Shown: positions 45,212 through 64,000 of the stretch, one piece after another
Position numbering within the stretch: the stretch's first letter is position 1
How the letters are laid out: every line of letters begins with the position of its first letter
Assembly (NCBI GenBank): GCA_051382295.1
Contig: JBBCAW010000003.1
Location: 63,351-127,350 of the forward strand
DNA: 64,000 bases
Source: Bdellovibrionota bacterium FG-1
GTDB taxonomy: Bacteria > Bdellovibrionota > UBA1018
Direction of reading: 5' to 3'
Notes under the pieces: generated by a model
Seen by the model: the letters and a program-made list of their open reading frames with translations, nothing else
The model's database searches: none
Told to the model about the DNA's origin: nothing
Made by a program: the position numbers and the translations under genes

Positions 45212-45378
45212 GGTTGAATTTTGTCAGAACCGGTTTTGAGCCTTTTCAGGGTCTTTGGCACCGCGCTGGGAGGGGGGCTTTAGGACGTATTCTGGGGCGT
45301 ATTAATCCAGAATCCGAGCACTCTTACCGAAATCCGAACGGCTAACGGCCCAGAATCCTCGTAATATCGAGGTAAGGT

Positions 45379-45394
45379 CGGCACTAGATTTGCT
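45379..45394 (+). promoter_or_regulatory. Sigma54 -24/-12 promoter of small-peptide locus 1
   Basis: CGGCAC-TAGAT-TTGCT (GG-N10-GC); the same spacing is conserved at locus 2. Confidence 0.7.
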
Positions 45395-45470
45395 TTTGTG
45401 GTCCCTGCCAAACCGCGCAGAGTGGACGGAAACACCTCCTTTCCTTCGTGAAAAAGAAAGGAGGCATCCT

Positions 45471-45611
45471 ATGAAAAGTAATAGAAAGCTCTATTATGCT
45501 CATCGGATCCGACTTGAAAAACTCAAATTTAAATCTTGGTGTCTTTATGTCCTCGCCAAGCTCTTGGTTTTTCTAGTCAAAACGGTAGCCGACTACCTAG
45601 GACAAATCTGA
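45471..45611 (+). CDS. 46-aa cationic/hydrophobic peptide, candidate type I toxin (locus 1)
   Basis: GAAAGGAGG SD paired with upstream CCTCCTTTC; MKSNRKLYYAHRIRLEKLKFKSWCLYVLAKLLVFLVKTVADYLGQI; paralog at 63632-63763. Confidence 0.75.
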   Translation: MKSNRKLYYAHRIRLEKLKFKSWCLYVLAKLLVFLVKTVADYLGQI

Positions 45612-45756
45612 GGTGCCCCGGGTGCAGCATTTAACCGGAGATCTCAGGATGAGAATTCTGTGCGGTTTGGTTTTGAAAACCCACCGCCGTTGCGATAGTG
45701 GATCCGGCGCAATAAGCGCAAGGGTTTGGTCGGGGTTTGAGCTTCCGAAAGCTGAT

Positions 45757-46631: not shown

Positions 46632-47465
46632 TTAGCCGAGCAGTTTGAGGGCAAGTTGAGGGTTTGCGTTCGCTTGACTCAAGACCGAAATATTGGCTTG
46701 GGTCAAGATGTTCTGCTTCGTCAGCTCCGAGGTTTCCTCGGCCATATCTGTGTCACGGATACGGCTATTGGCGCCTTCTAAGTTTTCGCGATAGATGCTC
46801 ATATTGTTGATTGCCGACGAAAGTCGGTTTTGAAGGGCGCCGAGCCCTGATCGGTTTTCACTCAACTTGACAATCGCTTGGTCCAGCATATTGAGGTTTT
46901 GCTGGGCGGTCTCTTTAGTGAGGGTTGAGACACCCTCGAGGTTCATTGCCCCGAGCGTCGTGTTGCGAGCGGGGGAGTCATAGATAAATCGATCCAGTGT
47001 TGGATTGTTATTGATCCCGATCTGAATATCTAGAGGCTCCGCAGTGCCATTCAACAGTTTGGTACCGTTGAATTCGGTCGAATTTGAAATTCGATTGATT
47101 TCTTCTTTGAGACTTTGAACTTCTTTATTGATAAACCCGCGTTCTGTGTCGCTGATCGTATCAGAGGCGCCTTGGATCGACAGCTCGCGCATACGAATTA
47201 AGACGTTGCCGATCTCGTTCATCCCACCTTCTGCTGTTTGCACGAGTGAGATGCCATCGTTGGCGTTACGGGTGGCCTGTTTCATCGAGCGGATGTTGGC
47301 CTTTAACTTTTCGCTGATGGCCAAGCCGGCGGCGTCGTCGCCTGCGCGGTTGATGCGACTACCCGAGGCTAATCTTTCGAGAGCCTTGTTTTGGGCATCA
47401 TGGTTGGCATTTAAGAATCGTTGTCCGGCTAAAGACTGGATATTTGTAGCGATACGCAGAGCCAT
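46632..47465 (-). CDS. fliC: Flagellin (short, 277 aa)
   Basis: RI.TN, LERL.SG.RINRA.DDAAGLAISE, R..LGA.QNRL, SRIRD.D.A.E, L.QAN..PQ..L.LL. Confidence 0.97.
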   Translation of the reverse strand: MALRIATNIQSLAGQRFLNANHDAQNKALERLASGSRINRAGDDAAGLAISEKLKANIRSMKQATRNANDGISLVQTAEGGMNEIGNVLIRMRELSIQGASDTISDTERGFINKEVQSLKEEINRISNSTEFNGTKLLNGTAEPLDIQIGINNNPTLDRFIYDSPARNTTLGAMNLEGVSTLTKETAQQNLNMLDQAIVKLSENRSGLGALQNRLSSAINNMSIYRENLEGANSRIRDTDMAEETSELTKQNILTQANISVLSQANANPQLALKLLG

Positions 47466-47550
47466 AATTCAATCTCCTTATTTTGTCTTCATGACCTCCT
47501 CCGTGAAACTGTTTTGCGGTCTTGCAATCCCTGCCTGACCTACAACACTC

Positions 47551-47577
47551 CTATCGGTGCAGATTTTTCCTACTTAA
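47551..47577 (-). promoter_or_regulatory. Sigma28 promoter of flagellin
   Basis: TTAAG-N14-ACCGATAG. Confidence 0.75.
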
Positions 47578-53392: not shown

Positions 53393-53428
53393 CTAAAAAA
53401 AATGCCGAGTGTGCTAGGGTGGGCGGCA

Positions 53429-55543
53429 ATGGACATTCTTGGCCAATCCGCCCTGTTGGTGGGCGTGACGAGTTTTGCCCTGGGGCTCTCAACCCTTTCG
53501 CGGAACGTTAAAAATAAGCTTTATATTGGATTTTCAGCGCTTACGACCCTGATCTCAGGGTGGGGTTTGTGCTTTTTTCTCGAAAAAATATGGTCGGGCG
53601 GAACTTTTTACCGGTGGCACCTGTTTTTTGGTGTTTGGCTGGTTCCGGCCGCTTTGGCCTTTATTCGTCTCATGACCCGCATTGAGGATCGGTTGAGTCG
53701 GCGGCTCCTTGAGATTTCGATTCTTTTGTCGTTGATGTTGACGGCGGCGCTTGGTCTTCATCTGGAGCGAGAGTCCTGGGTTCTCTCCTTCATGTATCTT
53801 TTTCCAGTCTTGGTGGTTTTGCAACTCGTGCAATTGATGTGGATTGATCGACGGTTGAGGCGAGGCCTAAAAAGACTGCCCAAACTGCCGACCGTGGGGT
53901 TTGGCCGCCGTAATTTGATCTACCTCGGGGGCTTAAGTGCCTTAGCGTTTTCGGTCATGGATCATGTGCCTTGGCTGGGAACGGTAGTGCCTTCGATAGG
54001 GAATCTGCTGCTCGTCGTTTATGTGTTTTTTATGAGTCAGGCGATTTCTCAACAGCGTCTTCTCAATTTTGGGGCTTTACTTTCGCGTGTCTTGGTTTTG
54101 GTGGCGGTCGCGTTGACTTTGACGGGCGTTTATTCGTTGCTCGTGGCGTGGATTCAAAACAGTCCTGAGCTGTTTTTCTTGAACTCCTTTATTGCTTCGT
54201 TTTTGATTCTCACTTTGCTCGATCCGCTTCGCTCGCTCGTGCGCTATTTCACTCAACGGTTACTCACGCAAAAGCACCAGCGGCTAGAACAAACTTTGAG
54301 AGAGGCGCAGCGTAAGCTTGTGGGCGTTGTTGATCCTGTCACTCTTTTTCAAGGGGTTTTACTTTTTGTTCAACAAACCATTCAACCGGAGTGGGCCGCG
54401 GTTTTTATTTTAAGAAGTGATGGCACGAAGTACCGCCGTGTGAGGCTGGTGGGTAATGAGGCCGGGGGGGCGGACGGCCGCGCTAAAGCCTTACGCGAGA
54501 TTCTCGCCGATCATCCGATGTTGCATCATTGTGCGGACCTTTATCGCAAAGGGGAACTTCCGGTGCTTTTGGATCAGGTGCTCGAAAATGAAATCGACCG
54601 GTCCGCTAGCCGGGTTCAGCGTGAACAACTGGCGGGTCTGATTCAAGGCCTCAAAGCCTTGGGCGGCAATCTGTTGATTCCTTTTTTTGATTCCGGCCAA
54701 ATTTTGGGTTTCGTCGCTTTGAGCGCGCTTTCTCCGCCTGAACCCTGGGGTAGTAACTGGGGTTTGTTGCCGATTATCTATCCCTATTTTGAACAAGTCG
54801 GCCAAGCTATGCGGAGTCTTGAAGTGTATGTTCGCTCGCGCGAAAAGGAGCGGTTGGCGACCTTGGGCGAAATGGCGGCTGGACTCGCGCACGAGATTCG
54901 CAACCCACTGGGAGCCATCAAGGGCGCCGCCCAGTTTTTGGACCCGGGCGTGGATCGGCCGGAAAGTCATTTTTTAAAAATTATTATTGAGGAGGTCGAT
55001 CGGCTGAACCGCGTGGTGACGCAGTTTTTGGAGTATTCTAAACCTCCCAAACTGGAACTCCAGTCGGTTGATGTGTCGAGCATGGCCGCTAGGACAGTCG
55101 AAATGATGAGGACCGGGTTGCAGGACGTTGGGGCTCCTTCGCTGGTCTTTGCGACTGCGCCCACTCGTTATGGACGGCAAACGCAAGTGCTGGGGGCGCC
55201 TGAGCAGCTTCAACAAGTATTGATTAACTTGATCCAAAACTCGGTCAAGGCGGTGGAGCAAAAGCCTTCGGGAACCGAGAAAGTGATCCGGGTGTCAGTT
55301 GATCGCGAGGGGCAGGGAAAAAACGCGGAGGTGACTTTATCTGTGGAAGATAATGGAGTGGGGATCAAAAAAGAAAACCTCGAAAAGCTGTTTATTCCCT
55401 TTTTTACGACCTCCCCCAGTGGCACGGGGTTGGGGCTTTCGATTTCGCAGAAGATTATAGAGGCTCATCGAGGTAGGATTGAAGTGGCTACTGAAGAAGG
55501 GCGATTTACGAGGTTTTCGTTGGTGTTACCAGCGTTGGAGTAA
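53429..55543 (+). CDS. Multi-TM NtrB-type sensor histidine kinase
   Basis: LGEMAAGLAHEIRNPL, QVLINL..N, DNG.GI, F.PFFTT, GTGLGL. Confidence 0.95.
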   Translation: MDILGQSALLVGVTSFALGLSTLSRNVKNKLYIGFSALTTLISGWGLCFFLEKIWSGGTFYRWHLFFGVWLVPAALAFIRLMTRIEDRLSRRLLEISILLSLMLTAALGLHLERESWVLSFMYLFPVLVVLQLVQLMWIDRRLRRGLKRLPKLPTVGFGRRNLIYLGGLSALAFSVMDHVPWLGTVVPSIGNLLLVVYVFFMSQAISQQRLLNFGALLSRVLVLVAVALTLTGVYSLLVAWIQNSPELFFLNSFIASFLILTLLDPLRSLVRYFTQRLLTQKHQRLEQTLREAQRKLVGVVDPVTLFQGVLLFVQQTIQPEWAAVFILRSDGTKYRRVRLVGNEAGGADGRAKALREILADHPMLHHCADLYRKGELPVLLDQVLENEIDRSASRVQREQLAGLIQGLKALGGNLLIPFFDSGQILGFVALSALSPPEPWGSNWGLLPIIYPYFEQVGQAMRSLEVYVRSREKERLATLGEMAAGLAHEIRNPLGAIKGAAQFLDPGVDRPESHFLKIIIEEVDRLNRVVTQFLEYSKPPKLELQSVDVSSMAARTVEMMRTGLQDVGAPSLVFATAPTRYGRQTQVLGAPEQLQQVLINLIQNSVKAVEQKPSGTEKVIRVSVDREGQGKNAEVTLSVEDNGVGIKKENLEKLFIPFFTTSPSGTGLGLSISQKIIEAHRGRIEVATEEGRFTRFSLVLPALE

Positions 55544-55549
55544 AAGTTG

Positions 55550-56947
55550 ATGCAAAAATCCGTCGGGCGCGTTTTAGTGGTGGATGACGAAAAAAATATT
55601 ACTTTTGTGATTCGCGCAATGCTTGAAAAAAATGGCTACGAGGCCATAGTCTTTAACGATAGTTCCAAGGCTTTGCGTGCGATTGACGTAGCGATGGAAG
55701 CCGAAGATTTGGATCTCGTGATCACTGATCTCTATATGCCAGGGCAAAATGGCATGGAAATTTTGGAACATTGTAAAAAGAACTATCCCCAGTTGCCGGT
55801 GGTGGTGATCACGGCCTTTGGAACGGTAGAGGCGGCGGTTTCGGCTCTCAAGCGGGGCGCTTTCGATTTTGTGACCAAGCCTTTTGATCAAACCGATTTG
55901 CTGGCGGTCGTTCAAAAAGCGGTGGCCACTCATCGGCAAAGTCAAAAAGAACCACCGCCGGTTCACGGGGGTTTTTCAATTGTAGGAGCGAGCCCGCAAA
56001 TTCAAGAGGTTTTTAAGGTCATCAATAAGATCGCGGGTTCTCCTTCGACGGTGCTTATTTTTGGCGAAAGCGGCACGGGCAAGGAGCTCGTGGCCTATGA
56101 AATTCACCGGCACTCGCAAAGAGTGAATAAGCCGTTTATCAAGGTCAACTGCGCCGCGATTCCCTCGACGCTGATTGAAAGCGAGCTTTTTGGTTACGAA
56201 AAGGGCGCTTTTACCGGAGCGGTGGCGTCCAAACCCGGGCGGTTTGAGCTCGCCAACGAGGGGACGCTATTTTTGGACGAAGTGGGGGAGATGCCGCTTG
56301 AAATGCAAGTCAAGCTTTTGAGGGTCCTGCAGGAGCAAGAATTTGAGCGAGTGGGGGGGATTACGACTACCCAAGTGGATGTGCGGATCATCACTGCCAC
56401 TAATCGTAATCTCGAGGAAGAAGTGAAGGCGGGGCGGTTTCGAGAGGATCTTTTTTATCGCTTGAATGTCGTTCCTATTTCTTTGCCGCCTTTGCGGGAT
56501 CGTCGGGAGGATATCGATCGCTTGGTTCAGTTTTTTCTGGGTCAGTTTAATGAGAAACTTGGCAGAAATGTGACGGGAATGACGCCCGAAACGTTGTTAG
56601 CTTTGCGTTCGTTTTCGTGGCCTGGGAATATTCGTCAACTCGAAAACGTGCTCGAGCGGATGATTTTGATGAGCGATGATCCGATGTTGAGAGTTTGTGA
56701 TCTTCCGATTGAGATTGCCGAGGCCGCGGGGATTCGAGCGGATGCTGATGTGGTTCAGACCGGTGAAGGCGGGAGTTTTAAAGAAATCGTGAGAAAGCAA
56801 ACGCAGTCGGTCGAACGGGAGCTGATTGAAAAAGCCCTTGAGGAAACGACGGGAAATGTCACGCGCGCGGCGGAGAAACTCGGCCTTTCACGGAAGGGCC
56901 TGCAGCTCAAGATCAAGGAGCTCGGGCTGAAGCGTCCGATTGAGTAG
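55550..56947 (+). CDS. Sigma54-dependent NtrC/AtoC-family response regulator
   Basis: REC (VVDDE, TD..MP), GESGTGKE, GAFTGA, LFLDE, WPGN.R.L.N, Fis-type HTH. Confidence 0.96.
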   Translation: MQKSVGRVLVVDDEKNITFVIRAMLEKNGYEAIVFNDSSKALRAIDVAMEAEDLDLVITDLYMPGQNGMEILEHCKKNYPQLPVVVITAFGTVEAAVSALKRGAFDFVTKPFDQTDLLAVVQKAVATHRQSQKEPPPVHGGFSIVGASPQIQEVFKVINKIAGSPSTVLIFGESGTGKELVAYEIHRHSQRVNKPFIKVNCAAIPSTLIESELFGYEKGAFTGAVASKPGRFELANEGTLFLDEVGEMPLEMQVKLLRVLQEQEFERVGGITTTQVDVRIITATNRNLEEEVKAGRFREDLFYRLNVVPISLPPLRDRREDIDRLVQFFLGQFNEKLGRNVTGMTPETLLALRSFSWPGNIRQLENVLERMILMSDDPMLRVCDLPIEIAEAAGIRADADVVQTGEGGSFKEIVRKQTQSVERELIEKALEETTGNVTRAAEKLGLSRKGLQLKIKELGLKRPIE

Positions 56948-62145: not shown

Positions 62146-63453
62146 GTGAGTTTTATTATTACAGTCAAGAAGTGTAATAAATCGATAGTCCTGGGCTGTT
62201 TGGGTTTGGCCTCATTATTCGTTTTGAGTGCCCAAAGTTTTGCGGACGGCGGAACTAACGCCTCCCCTCCGATGAACTCGTCGGGATTTAAAGGCGATAC
62301 CGTGGATTTACATCTGACACCAGGTGACCTTGATATTAAGGATCATCAAGTGAATGCTCAGGTGGGAGCCTTTCAGAACAGCGGCGGAGGCAAGGGCTTG
62401 AGCCTTTAACTCGATCTGAGTAAAGATTACTTTATCGATGGAGCGAGTTCGGTGGCCTATGATCACGAATATCATTCTGGCGCGGCTGGGATGAGCTTGA
62501 ACCCCGGGATTCATGGCCGAGTGGAAACCGAGATCAAGGATGGAAGTGCGGCCTTGGGCCGAGTGAATGTCGAGATCAGTGGTATTACCTTGTTTCGAGC
62601 TCATAAGCTTTCATCATCCATCGGAGTGGATAAGAGAGAAACCCAAGACAGAATGGAAAAGGGTGTGGTTCGGTTTGTTCGTTGGGATAATTGTGGAAAG
62701 GAATCTGAGCGACTGAAGGGAATATTTGGGGGATATGAGAGATTAAATGATCTTTATCCAGCTCAGCAGCGACTTTTAGCGCGTGAGGTTGAAAAATTTA
62801 ACCAGACTAAATGCCGAGAGGGGATCCCAGAACTTGAAGGTAATCTTTCTTGGACGGAGTTGCTGGCTAAAATGGCAAAACCAGAGGTTTTGGAAAAGCT
62901 TCGTGGTCGTAATATTCCGGTGTTCGAGATTCAAACCCAAAGAAAACCCAGTACCACGGGAGAAGTTCGTATCGCTGAAATGACTGGCGTCTATGATTCC
63001 AACCCTAAAGTGGATGATCAAAGAATCGGTGCGCGCGTTAAGGGACTGCAGCTCGCCTGGGAAACTTCCTTCAAGATGGGAAAATACGTCCAGTTTGATT
63101 TCTGTGGCGGCGGTTACGCCGGCATGGTGTTTGGGCCAACCAAGGTGGGTGAATCCAAGACTGTGGCTTCCGGAGATTTTGGAGGGCATGCTTGCGGCGG
63201 ACTCACGATAGGCAAGGTCGGACGAATTGGCTACGAGCAAGGGCTGGGTGCAAGCGTCAGTGCCGATACGGATCGGGCGTTCTCTGAACAATCTGCCTTG
63301 TTAACCAATAGCGAAGCCGTATCAATCCGAAACATCGCGCGCGAGAAGAACCCTGTTTACCTCTACGGAAAACGTGAAAACGACAGTAGCTTTAATGTCG
63401 ATCACGAAAAATCTGTAACGGTATGGACTGCTGGTGTCGGCGGGAGCTTCTAA
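62146..63453 (+). pseudogene. Secreted/outer-membrane protein interrupted by one in-frame TAA (62407-62409)
   Basis: ORFs 62146-62409 and 62452-63453 share a frame; AAGGAG RBS, signal peptide ending SFA, C-terminus AGVGGSF. Confidence 0.7.
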
Positions 63454-63481
63454 GAAGTCCTGACTTTATATCGTGAAAATA

Positions 63482-63532
63482 TTCAGGCCCAGGGCATCGG
63501 ACAAATCTGAGTCTGGGCCTGAAGTGTTTTTA
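63482..63532 (+). terminator. Probable intrinsic terminator
   Basis: TTCAGGCCCAG...CTGGGCCTGAA followed by GTGTTTTT. Confidence 0.55.
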
Positions 63533-63631
63533 TGCGCCCACGAGTAGGGGCGGCCATCGCGGGGGAAACCAAACCGAGCAGCCCTCTCATCATGAGAACT
63601 CCGGTTTATGCTGCACCCAGAGTCACCTCAC

Positions 63632-63763
63632 TTATCTTAGGGAATCGACCAGGTTTGCTAGAAAAAACAAAAACTTAGCCAAGATAAAGAGGAGCCAAGT
63701 TTTCTGTTTAAGTTTTTCTAGCTGGATCCGAGAAGCATAACAGTCGTTTCTGTTATTCTTCAT
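63632..63763 (-). CDS. 43-aa cationic/hydrophobic peptide, candidate type I toxin (locus 2; absent from the ORF track)
   Basis: AAGGAGGTG SD paired with CACCTCCTT; MKNNRNDCYASRIQLEKLKQKTWLLFILAKFLFFLANLVDSLR, homologous to 45471-45611. Confidence 0.75.
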   Translation of the reverse strand: MKNNRNDCYASRIQLEKLKQKTWLLFILAKFLFFLANLVDSLR

Positions 63764-63838
63764 AAGGATCACCTCCTTTCTCTATATAAGGAAGGAGGTG
63801 GTTCCATCCACGCTGCTCAGTTTGGCAGAATCCCTATC

Positions 63839-63854
63839 AGCAAAACTGATGCCT
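63839..63854 (-). promoter_or_regulatory. Sigma54 -24/-12 promoter of small-peptide locus 2
   Basis: AGGCAT-CAGTT-TTGCT (GG-N10-GC). Confidence 0.7.
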
Positions 63855-63932
63855 ACTTTATCCGTGGTTTATTAGGCCTGGCGCCCATTTCCCAGTCCGA
63901 GTGGACGGGATTCGGACTTGAAAGGGGGCCTC

Positions 63933-64000
63933 ATGATGAAAAAAACATTTCTGTTTCAAGGCTGGAAACCGCTTCTTGCTTTTTTGCCGCTCATTTGGCC
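63933..64000 (+). CDS. 5' end of a probable exported protein (runs off the window)
   Basis: AAGGGGG RBS; MMKKTFLFQGWKPLLAFLPLIW. Confidence 0.45.
   Translation, partial: MMKKTFLFQGWKPLLAFLPLIW

Follow-up and report, generated by a model that had tools for sequence, protein, structure and literature searches.

[quoted passage not shown] In Hok/Sok, Ldr/Rdl, Fst/RNAII and TisB/IstR, such a peptide is encoded by a message whose ribosome site is sequestered, and the antitoxin RNAs are placed in different ways, with Sok and Rdl lying 5' of the open reading frame (ORF), RNAII at the 3' side and IstR outside the mRNA (sections of PMC8594479). The described system closest in layout to the one reported here is AapA/IsoA from Helicobacter pylori, which likewise occupies several chromosomal loci and encodes a small cationic peptide with one membrane helix (parts of PMC5416894 and PMC8309996). 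Additionally, the CD1980.2 family of C. difficile resembles the present one in comprising small membrane-associated proteins that are redundant, encoded in several copies and subject to a common control from upstream, and differs in that this control is exerted by c-di-GMP riboswitches, with no antisense promoter named in the text available from that source (PMC13724677). What type I toxins encoded on chromosomes do physiologically has long been an open question, which for TisB was cracked through knowing the promoter (PMC11264685).

Here we describe a cassette that is present twice in the window (the whole analysed stretch of 64,000 nucleotides, from contig JBBCAW010000003.1 of Bdellovibrionota bacterium FG-1, an uncultured relative of predatory bacteria). 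This cassette is real, selected, multi-copy and, within the literature and databases searched, undescribed. Its peptide corresponds to the above definition of a membrane toxin, with the charge here mostly N-terminal. It also has in common with TisB a conditional promoter (LexA-controlled in TisB), and it differs from the four systems named above in the predicted position of its antisense RNA. Judging from the sequence evidence, we consider that the cassette probably represents a type I toxin-antitoxin family not described before, in which the toxin message would depend on sigma54 and the antitoxin on sigma28.

Results

The cassette and its copies

The initial annotation described, on the minus strand near the end of the window, a small-peptide locus that was taken as the second copy of another one (locus 1). 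The interval given for it coincides exactly with the stretch from the sigma54 box (63854-63839) through the 3' strand of a closing helix, P1 (63582-63568), and the ORF with the reported peptide sequence is indeed found there (63763-63635, 43 aa); a candidate antisense sigma28-type promoter and a candidate upstream enhancer palindrome are additional to that description. The elements of this copy are the following:

63903..63917, minus strand: palindromic upstream site at a distance of 63 nt from the sigma54 box, where a sigma54 activator might bind (candidate enhancer)
63839..63854, minus strand: sigma54 promoter motif, -24 GG / -12 GC
about 63828, minus strand: probable start of the sense transcript, placed from the sigma54 box
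63812..63826, minus strand: 5' strand of P1, a closing helix of long range (folding and covariation)
63798..63811, minus strand: 4-bp hairpin with ANGGAN loop, overlapping the anti-SD strand
63770..63800, minus strand: anti-SD/SD hairpin, with the ribosome site locked in the predicted fold
63632..63763, minus strand: peptide ORF and stop codon (43 aa, coding part 63763-63635), with a basic N-terminal half and a hydrophobic helix from residue 24
63708..63733, plus strand: candidate antisense sigma28 (FliA)-type promoter inside codons 11-19 of the ORF, -35 TTAAG, 15-nt spacer, -10 CCGAGA
63740..63830, plus strand: predicted antisense RNA, its start placed from the promoter spacing
63584..63630, minus strand: conserved 3' domain, a hairpin with the near-invariant GGUACAGC/GGUGCAGC loop, then CUC-ANGAN-GAG
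63568..63582, minus strand: 3' strand of P1, pairing with 63826-63812

Locus 1 has the corresponding elements on the opposite strand:

45305..45339, plus strand: two palindromic upstream sites, at -74 and -54
45379..45671, plus strand: whole cassette, with the sigma54 box at 45379-45394
45407-45421 and 45657-45671, plus strand: P1 strands
45471-45608, plus strand: ORF (46 aa), 18.3 kb from the window-end copy
45501..45526, minus strand: weaker antisense sigma28-type site (score 5.4, background not exceeded)

The gap-free alignment proposed for the two peptides holds up to the FL motif, and a one-codon gap is needed near the C-terminus. Both compensatory changes reported between the two loci (C-G to A-U and A-U to C-G) are real, and two more, one-sided, changes (C-G to U-G and G-U to G-C) keep the pairing as well. 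The window-end locus is a copy of locus 1, 18.3 kb away, but it is not simply the second one: searched with an iterated DNA profile, the genome (4.44 Mb) gave 29 matches at E<=1e-4, of which 25 are full-length and 4 partial, which bears out the suggestion of a dispersed multi-copy family. In all 25 full copies the ORF is open (43-53 aa), with a strong SD in front.

Range among genomes

A 30-row protein profile found matches in 24 of the 116 genomes of the same order (Bdellovibrionota labels), corresponding to 19 of 70 genera and with 1 to 27 matches in each genome. In a sample of the phylum, 20 of 401 genomes matched, all within this order, and none of the 307 sampled genomes outside the order did so; divergent relatives can be missed here, because only 17 candidates were scored per genome. 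A covariance model of the 3' domain matched 8 of 151 genomes, in agreement with the protein profile, and gave one weak match among 125 genomes outside the order, with no cassette there; in the genomes searched, the cassette was found only within its order. Those relatives that are named carry the labels Bdellovibrionia, Bacteriovoracaceae, Bdellovibrio sp. or Deltaproteobacteria. In a large protein library, 80 clusters (50% identity), mostly of 41-50 aa, match the family, and ten of these were checked (two are named "hypothetical protein" and eight are unnamed). The loci analysed are a part of all matches and comprise 91 of full length; a further 48 partial rows, in which a contig ended, the SD hairpin matched itself on the reverse strand or the copy was disrupted, were excluded. 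The locus counts given below are not independent, since the copies are related.

A selected, putative membrane peptide

The peptide is under purifying selection. Stops and frameshifts scattered at random, together with a lack of covariation, had been named in the initial annotation as the mark of a neutral repeat; instead, the ORF spans 38-53 aa in 89 of the 91 full-length loci (the remaining two have one internal deletion and one early stop), and the closing helix covaries. The dN/dS ratio is 0.43 (bootstrap 0.36-0.51; 31 disjoint pairs from 88 distinct ORFs), and 0.38 (0.31-0.47) from residue 20 onward, outside the promoter overlap, whereas the other five reading frames contain stops in 80-88 of the 88 sequences. 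The median peptide has 45 aa and a net charge of +7. In 79 of 89 cases the best 19-residue Kyte-Doolittle window reaches at least 1.6, the hydrophobic stretch beginning near residue 24, and an AlphaFold model consists of a single helix over residues 4-42 (pLDDT 83).

Database searches gave no named relative. Neither window peptide matches Pfam; NCBIfam returned two single-member matches and PHROGs six matches at E 0.04-0.09, all at chance level; and there were no matches in PADLOC, or among PDB chains at E<=10 with the 30-row alignment. In the ESM Atlas the nearest clusters (0.85-0.87) are unnamed and serve as leads only, and the TisB and DinQ clusters come no higher than 0.78 and 0.76, values expected by chance. 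None of 73 peptide candidates from viral contigs was confirmed, none of seven pattern matches on viral contigs is a family member (best E 0.03), and tblastn against phages and plasmids had no matches.

A folded message

The inferred ends give a transcript of about 260 nt, and this size, together with the predicted sequestration of the ribosome site, fits what is expected of a type I message (150-400 nt). The window-end copy and locus 1 fold with z-scores of -7.9 and -6.15, respectively, when each is compared with 200 dinucleotide shuffles. Across the genome's 25 copies the pairing of P1 amounts to 96%, with two-sided changes at 8 of its 13 pairs. In a tree-aware covariation test (our own implementation, with 88 sequences and 12 null simulations), the five top pairs all belong to P1 (E 0, 0, 0.08, 0.33 and 0.42), which upholds the conserved pairing claimed earlier for this helix, and are followed by a pair of the early-ORF hairpin (E 0.5) and one of the GGA hairpin (E 2, not significant). 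Hok and Fst mRNAs are closed by a 5'-3' helix in the same way.

The covariation thus shows the 5'/3' helix, and the locking of the SD and of the start codon is a prediction from the folds. Over 89 loci, the SD has a median unpaired probability of 0.02, in a local fold of about -17 kcal/mol, and the AUG is mostly paired (median unpaired 0.12). In silico the SD stays locked after trimming 20 or 40 nt, or all of the post-stop region, from the 3' end, and also after removing 25 nt from the 5' end. An ANGGAN hexamer, which in a hairpin loop we take to be a CsrA-type motif, occurs in 80 of 89 leaders, with at least 3 of the 4 stem pairs in 62; in full-length folds this hairpin is mostly paired away (median unpaired 0.34).

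The 3' loop GG(U/C)(A/G)CAGC is found in 73 of 89 loci. Within the 3' domain the loop has a median unpaired probability of 0.72 and the flanking stem of 0.99, and an attempt at column covariation revealed that the register of the helix shifts among copies. A search for pairing or pseudoknot partners of the invariant loop gave none paired above 0.82, and the one at this value is the occupied P1 strand. Rfam had no match at gathering score over the whole window, and three chance matches in E-value mode over five loci; resemblances to a ribozyme, a tRNA, the SAM-I and the fluoride riboswitch were rejected on motif mismatch and on this result.

A sigma54 promoter with a phased palindrome

Just before P1, GG..GC at sigma54 spacing is present in 75 of 89 loci, matching the -24/-12 consensus tGGcacg/tTGCt (given in an excerpt of PMC4641369), and AG..GC in 10 more. 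According to the same excerpt, most sigma54 activator sites lie within 100 nt (PMC4641369). Further upstream, 69 of the 88 loci with flanking sequence carry the palindrome GTCCGAA-W-TTCGGAC (15 bp), compared with 14.8 in shuffles, a control that is lenient because the matrix was learned on the same loci that it scored. Most of the sites (84 of 110) cluster around four distances from the sigma54 box, in bins at about -74, -64, -54 and -44, spaced by one helical turn, a phasing that would fit a protein obliged to face the polymerase. At the other sigma54-like sites of the genome the palindrome is not enriched (12 of 282 such sites have it, as do 152 of 2816 positions taken at random), and the cassette family therefore seems close to a private regulon; a flagellar link of the enhancer was rejected on the same grounds. 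An SOS-type reading of the palindrome is unsupported, the non-family sites adjoining mixed genes (as judged by N-terminal sequence only).

The genome contains rpoN and 25 sigma54 activators. When these 25 were compared for signs of autoregulation, the best palindrome score (15.5, 287 nt before the start) belonged to a 523-aa activator at G000 C12:221900-223800, a weak lead to the cognate activator. The window itself encodes, between its two loci, a histidine kinase and a sigma54-dependent response regulator (53402-56947, plus strand), which the comparison did not mark as the cognate activator. In 29 of 89 loci the palindrome also scores within the 100 nt downstream.

A probable antisense sigma28-type promoter inside the ORF

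In nearly all copies, the strand opposite to codons 11-19 carries TTAAG-N15-CCGATA or close variants. The genome has T[TAC]AAG-N15/16-CCGAT upstream of four of its six flagellin genes, including a promoter in the window at 47577-47552; the leader of the window's flagellin gene (46632-47577, minus strand) holds several GGA motifs. In B. bacteriovorus, TTAAG-N16-CCGATA was reported in 92 of 140 attack-phase promoters and attributed to FliA (sigma28), in a regulon that shares this motif and in which FliA drives many non-flagellar genes (both from portions of PMC3627812). The APsRNAs of that organism differ from the RNA predicted here in being intergenic, and not antisense to a peptide gene, in the same portions (PMC3627812).

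A sigma28 matrix trained outside the family chose the homologous antisense site in 24 of the 25 copies of the genome. The antisense sites lie above the 95th percentile of random windows in 16 of 25 copies (they are weak in 9), and the sense strand in none of 25. The peptide does not explain the motif, because the promoter score exceeds that of synonymous recodings in 88 of 88 sequences and codon usage is constrained at three positions. Codon 11 ends in T in 85 of 88 despite coding for seven amino acids, and its third base changed once on the tree, compared with five times for the next lowest third position (start codon aside). Arg12 is encoded by CGG (75), CGT (9) or CGA (1) and never by AGA/AGG, which make up 147 of the 293 Arg codons elsewhere in the family ORFs; CGG and CGT correspond to the C or A tolerated in the genome's own -10 boxes. 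Leu18 is CTN, avoiding TTA/TTG, in 77 of 79 cases, against 42 of 82 at Leu32. The spacing between the -35 and -10 boxes is unchanged in 86 of 88, and in three copies with Arg12 replaced by Gly the -10 box is kept one base over, with a 16-nt spacer.

The bases of the -10 box also pair with GAUCC-N-AUG near the start codon in the predicted folds, and part of the antisense motif is explained by mRNA pairing. With the predicted-paired bases held fixed, the score still exceeds the recodings in 75 of 88 sequences, but reaches p<=0.05 individually in only 5, among them the window-end copy (p 0.01; locus 1, p 0.73). Constraint persists at the first base of Arg12 and in the centre of the -35 box, both of which are unpaired to about one half or more, and this speaks for a promoter; against it, the third base of codon 18 is A or G in 35 of 88 copies, so that the third -35 base is mismatched. 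We regard it as likely, from these constraints, that the motif is a promoter.

The antisense RNA would cover the first codons, the start codon, the SD hairpin and the leader, and is predicted to fold into three hairpins; no conserved U-tract terminator was seen in the folds inspected. Over the overlap region the 25 copies fall in nine groups by shared 25-nt stretches, and the longest stretch common to both window loci is 10 nt; from this, nine cross-talk groups would be expected, and no cross-rescue between these two loci. The genome encodes FliA, whose presence is not discriminating, as fliA is found in 110 of the 116 genomes of the order. Applied genome-wide (G000), the sigma28 matrix gives high-scoring sites in the intergenic regions ahead of many genes without flagellar-looking N-termini, which suggests that FliA may be a global regulator here, as in B. 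bacteriovorus.

Spread, disrupted copies and neighbourhood

A 93% identical paralogue (L011:2874-3225) is homologous to window positions 63568-63917, the palindrome and the end of P1 being the exact limits of the homology, and its flanks are unrelated. Among 24 close pairs, homology begins within 7 nt of the sigma54 box in 8, in one of these at masked bases. In genome G069, a group II intron-like element (GUGCG start, reverse transcriptase frame of 455 aa with YADD) lies at the same point of the peptide ORF in at least three copies (L123:700-2627, L082:688-773 and L125:676-770), being whole in L123 and represented only by its 3' end in the other two. One copy is split by an insertion that contains a transposase-like frame of 379 aa and has a short flank in duplicate (L096:1215-2447), and in another genome two copies are interrupted by a second element (L095:770-950 and L126:759-829). 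Independent internal deletions removed much of the hydrophobic helix in L003:1595-1835 (G000 C9), L075, L076, L077 and L079, with the promoter, leader and RNA 3' end kept; L092 has an early stop, and L003:1414-1555, L003:3830-3887 and L154 are 3'-only remnants.

Some copies (L010, L013 and L014) adjoin type II toxin-like genes (PBECR2, HipA_C, a DUF6036 nucleotidyltransferase and PIN), and most other neighbours are unrelated enzymes or unknowns. In the window, an 11-bp inverted repeat with a long loop (63483-63523) separates the 3' end of the cassette from a gene of 333 aa without Pfam match (62452-63453), and it may end both transcripts. A scan of 63400-64000 found no sigma70 promoter and no terminator, the repeat having been missed probably because of its loop size.

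Discussion

We propose that the cassette probably makes a self-toxic membrane peptide from a locked message, silenced by an RNA of the opposite strand, and that the two strands apparently answer to different life-cycle switches. In this mechanism, a single dedicated activator bound to the phased palindromes would fire the sigma54 promoters of many copies together. The transcript of about 260 nt would fold at once, the SD pairing locally and the start codon with the early ORF, and its two ends would close in P1 as a protecting helix, giving a silent and probably stable stock of messages. FliA would transcribe the antisense RNA from within the ORF over the start codon, SD and leader, and this RNA would block the message or mark it for decay. 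When FliA activity drops, some of the message could be translated into the cationic single-helix peptide, which would enter the inner membrane and arrest growth or alter the envelope. A protein acting on the GGA hairpin or on the invariant 3' loop might perhaps unlock the SD.

The most evident alternative, which we hold to be rather unlikely and nevertheless the main rival, is that the peptides are redundant, non-toxic small membrane proteins with a developmental role as signal or regulator, the lock and the antisense RNA serving to sharpen sigma54/sigma28 timing. The copies do look like a host regulon, having in common one promoter type and one enhancer that is unenriched elsewhere, and they have no matches on phages, plasmids or viral contigs; there is also a precedent in the seven redundant small membrane proteins that drive sporulation in C. 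difficile (as stated in part of PMC13724677). However, type I toxins are marked by a locking of translation in several layers, the family has a patchy distribution (1 to 27 matches in each of 24 of 116 genomes), its neighbours are unrelated and include type II toxin-like genes, and deletions or insertions have deprived several copies of the hydrophobic helix.

The toxin-antitoxin reading has an extended form, which we consider unlikely as it stands, in which the same parts would work as a life-cycle timer. One sigma54 activator would stock about 25 locked messages, which the FliA-dependent antisense RNAs would keep silent throughout the swimming (attack) phase, and the shut-off of FliA on meeting prey would release a burst of peptide, by which the cell would be arrested or remodelled or the prey damaged; the invariant 3' loop or the GGA hairpin would then be a key operated by a protein.

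It is quite improbable that the RNA is the main product, for example as a sigma54-induced RNA that binds a protein or ligand (such as a CsrA sponge), with the peptide secondary and the antisense motif a by-product of mRNA pairing. The conservation of ANGGAN and of the 3' loop, for which no conserved pairing partner was found, would suit such an RNA; csrA is present in the genome (where it adjoins a flagellin-domain gene on C7), and sigma54-driven non-coding RNAs exist in Desulfovibrio (in the text seen of PMC4641369). Yet selection on the ORF extends beyond the promoter overlap, a single GGA is well kept, many 3' loops have no GGA, and when the full-length RNA is folded the GGA hairpin mostly gives way to other pairings. 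Sponges of the CsrB/RsmZ type have many GGA motifs in hairpin loops and no coding function; the cassette has one conserved GGA hairpin, a variable second one and a selected ORF, and was not assigned to this type. Finally, a selfish or neutral dispersed repeat, with fold and ORF as relics of spreading, is very improbable and already largely refuted: many copies do lie at unrelated sites and in tandem arrays, and 4 of the 24 close pairs of paralogues have a homology that starts no more than 2 nt from the palindrome, but the dN/dS is below 1, the ORFs are intact in 89 of 91 loci, P1 covaries, the promoter geometry is kept over 19 genera, and the unit has no transposase and, in the one pair inspected, no target duplication.

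Under the toxin-antitoxin reading, which we prefer, the chief novelty would be the sigma54/sigma28 wiring, making the timing of expression directly testable: since both strands bear readable and different sigma signatures, the timing of the peptide can be predicted directly. FliA is the attack-phase master regulator in Bdellovibrio, and the cassette may therefore tie membrane-active peptides to the phase switch of the predator. Besides this, it adds a peptide family and a conserved RNA motif, both of them new.

Regarding known systems, the titles and abstracts of the open-access literature gave neither a type I system whose toxin promoter is of the sigma54 type or whose antitoxin promoter is of the sigma28 type, nor any type I system from Bdellovibrionota. 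There is no Rfam antitoxin match for the cassette, and profile and library searches of PDB, Pfam, NCBIfam and Rfam gave no homology to AapA/IsoA; the tables of predicted novel toxin ORFs in Fozo 2010 and T1TAdb could contain distant relatives. The likeness to AapA/IsoA lies in the arrangement. In both, the full-length mRNA is folded and untranslatable, here by prediction (parts of PMC5416894 and PMC8309996); the promoter of isoA1 lies within the aapA1 coding sequence, according to a section of PMC5416894, as the predicted antisense promoter does within our ORF; and the antisense RNA lies fully inside the mRNA and overlaps the ORF (a section of PMC8594479), again as predicted here. The differences are equally clear. 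The cassette peptides have 38-53 aa against 30 for AapA, and the promoters are of the sigma54 (with enhancer) and sigma28 types, whereas TAAAAT/TATAAT boxes are used in Helicobacter. In AapA1 it is 3' processing that unmasks the SD, whereas the lock of the cassette is local and survives 3' trimming in silico, and the cassette has about 25 copies and an extra conserved 3' domain. By analogy, then, a cassette for which no homology to a named family was found would work like a membrane-toxin type I system and appears to be laid out like AapA/IsoA.
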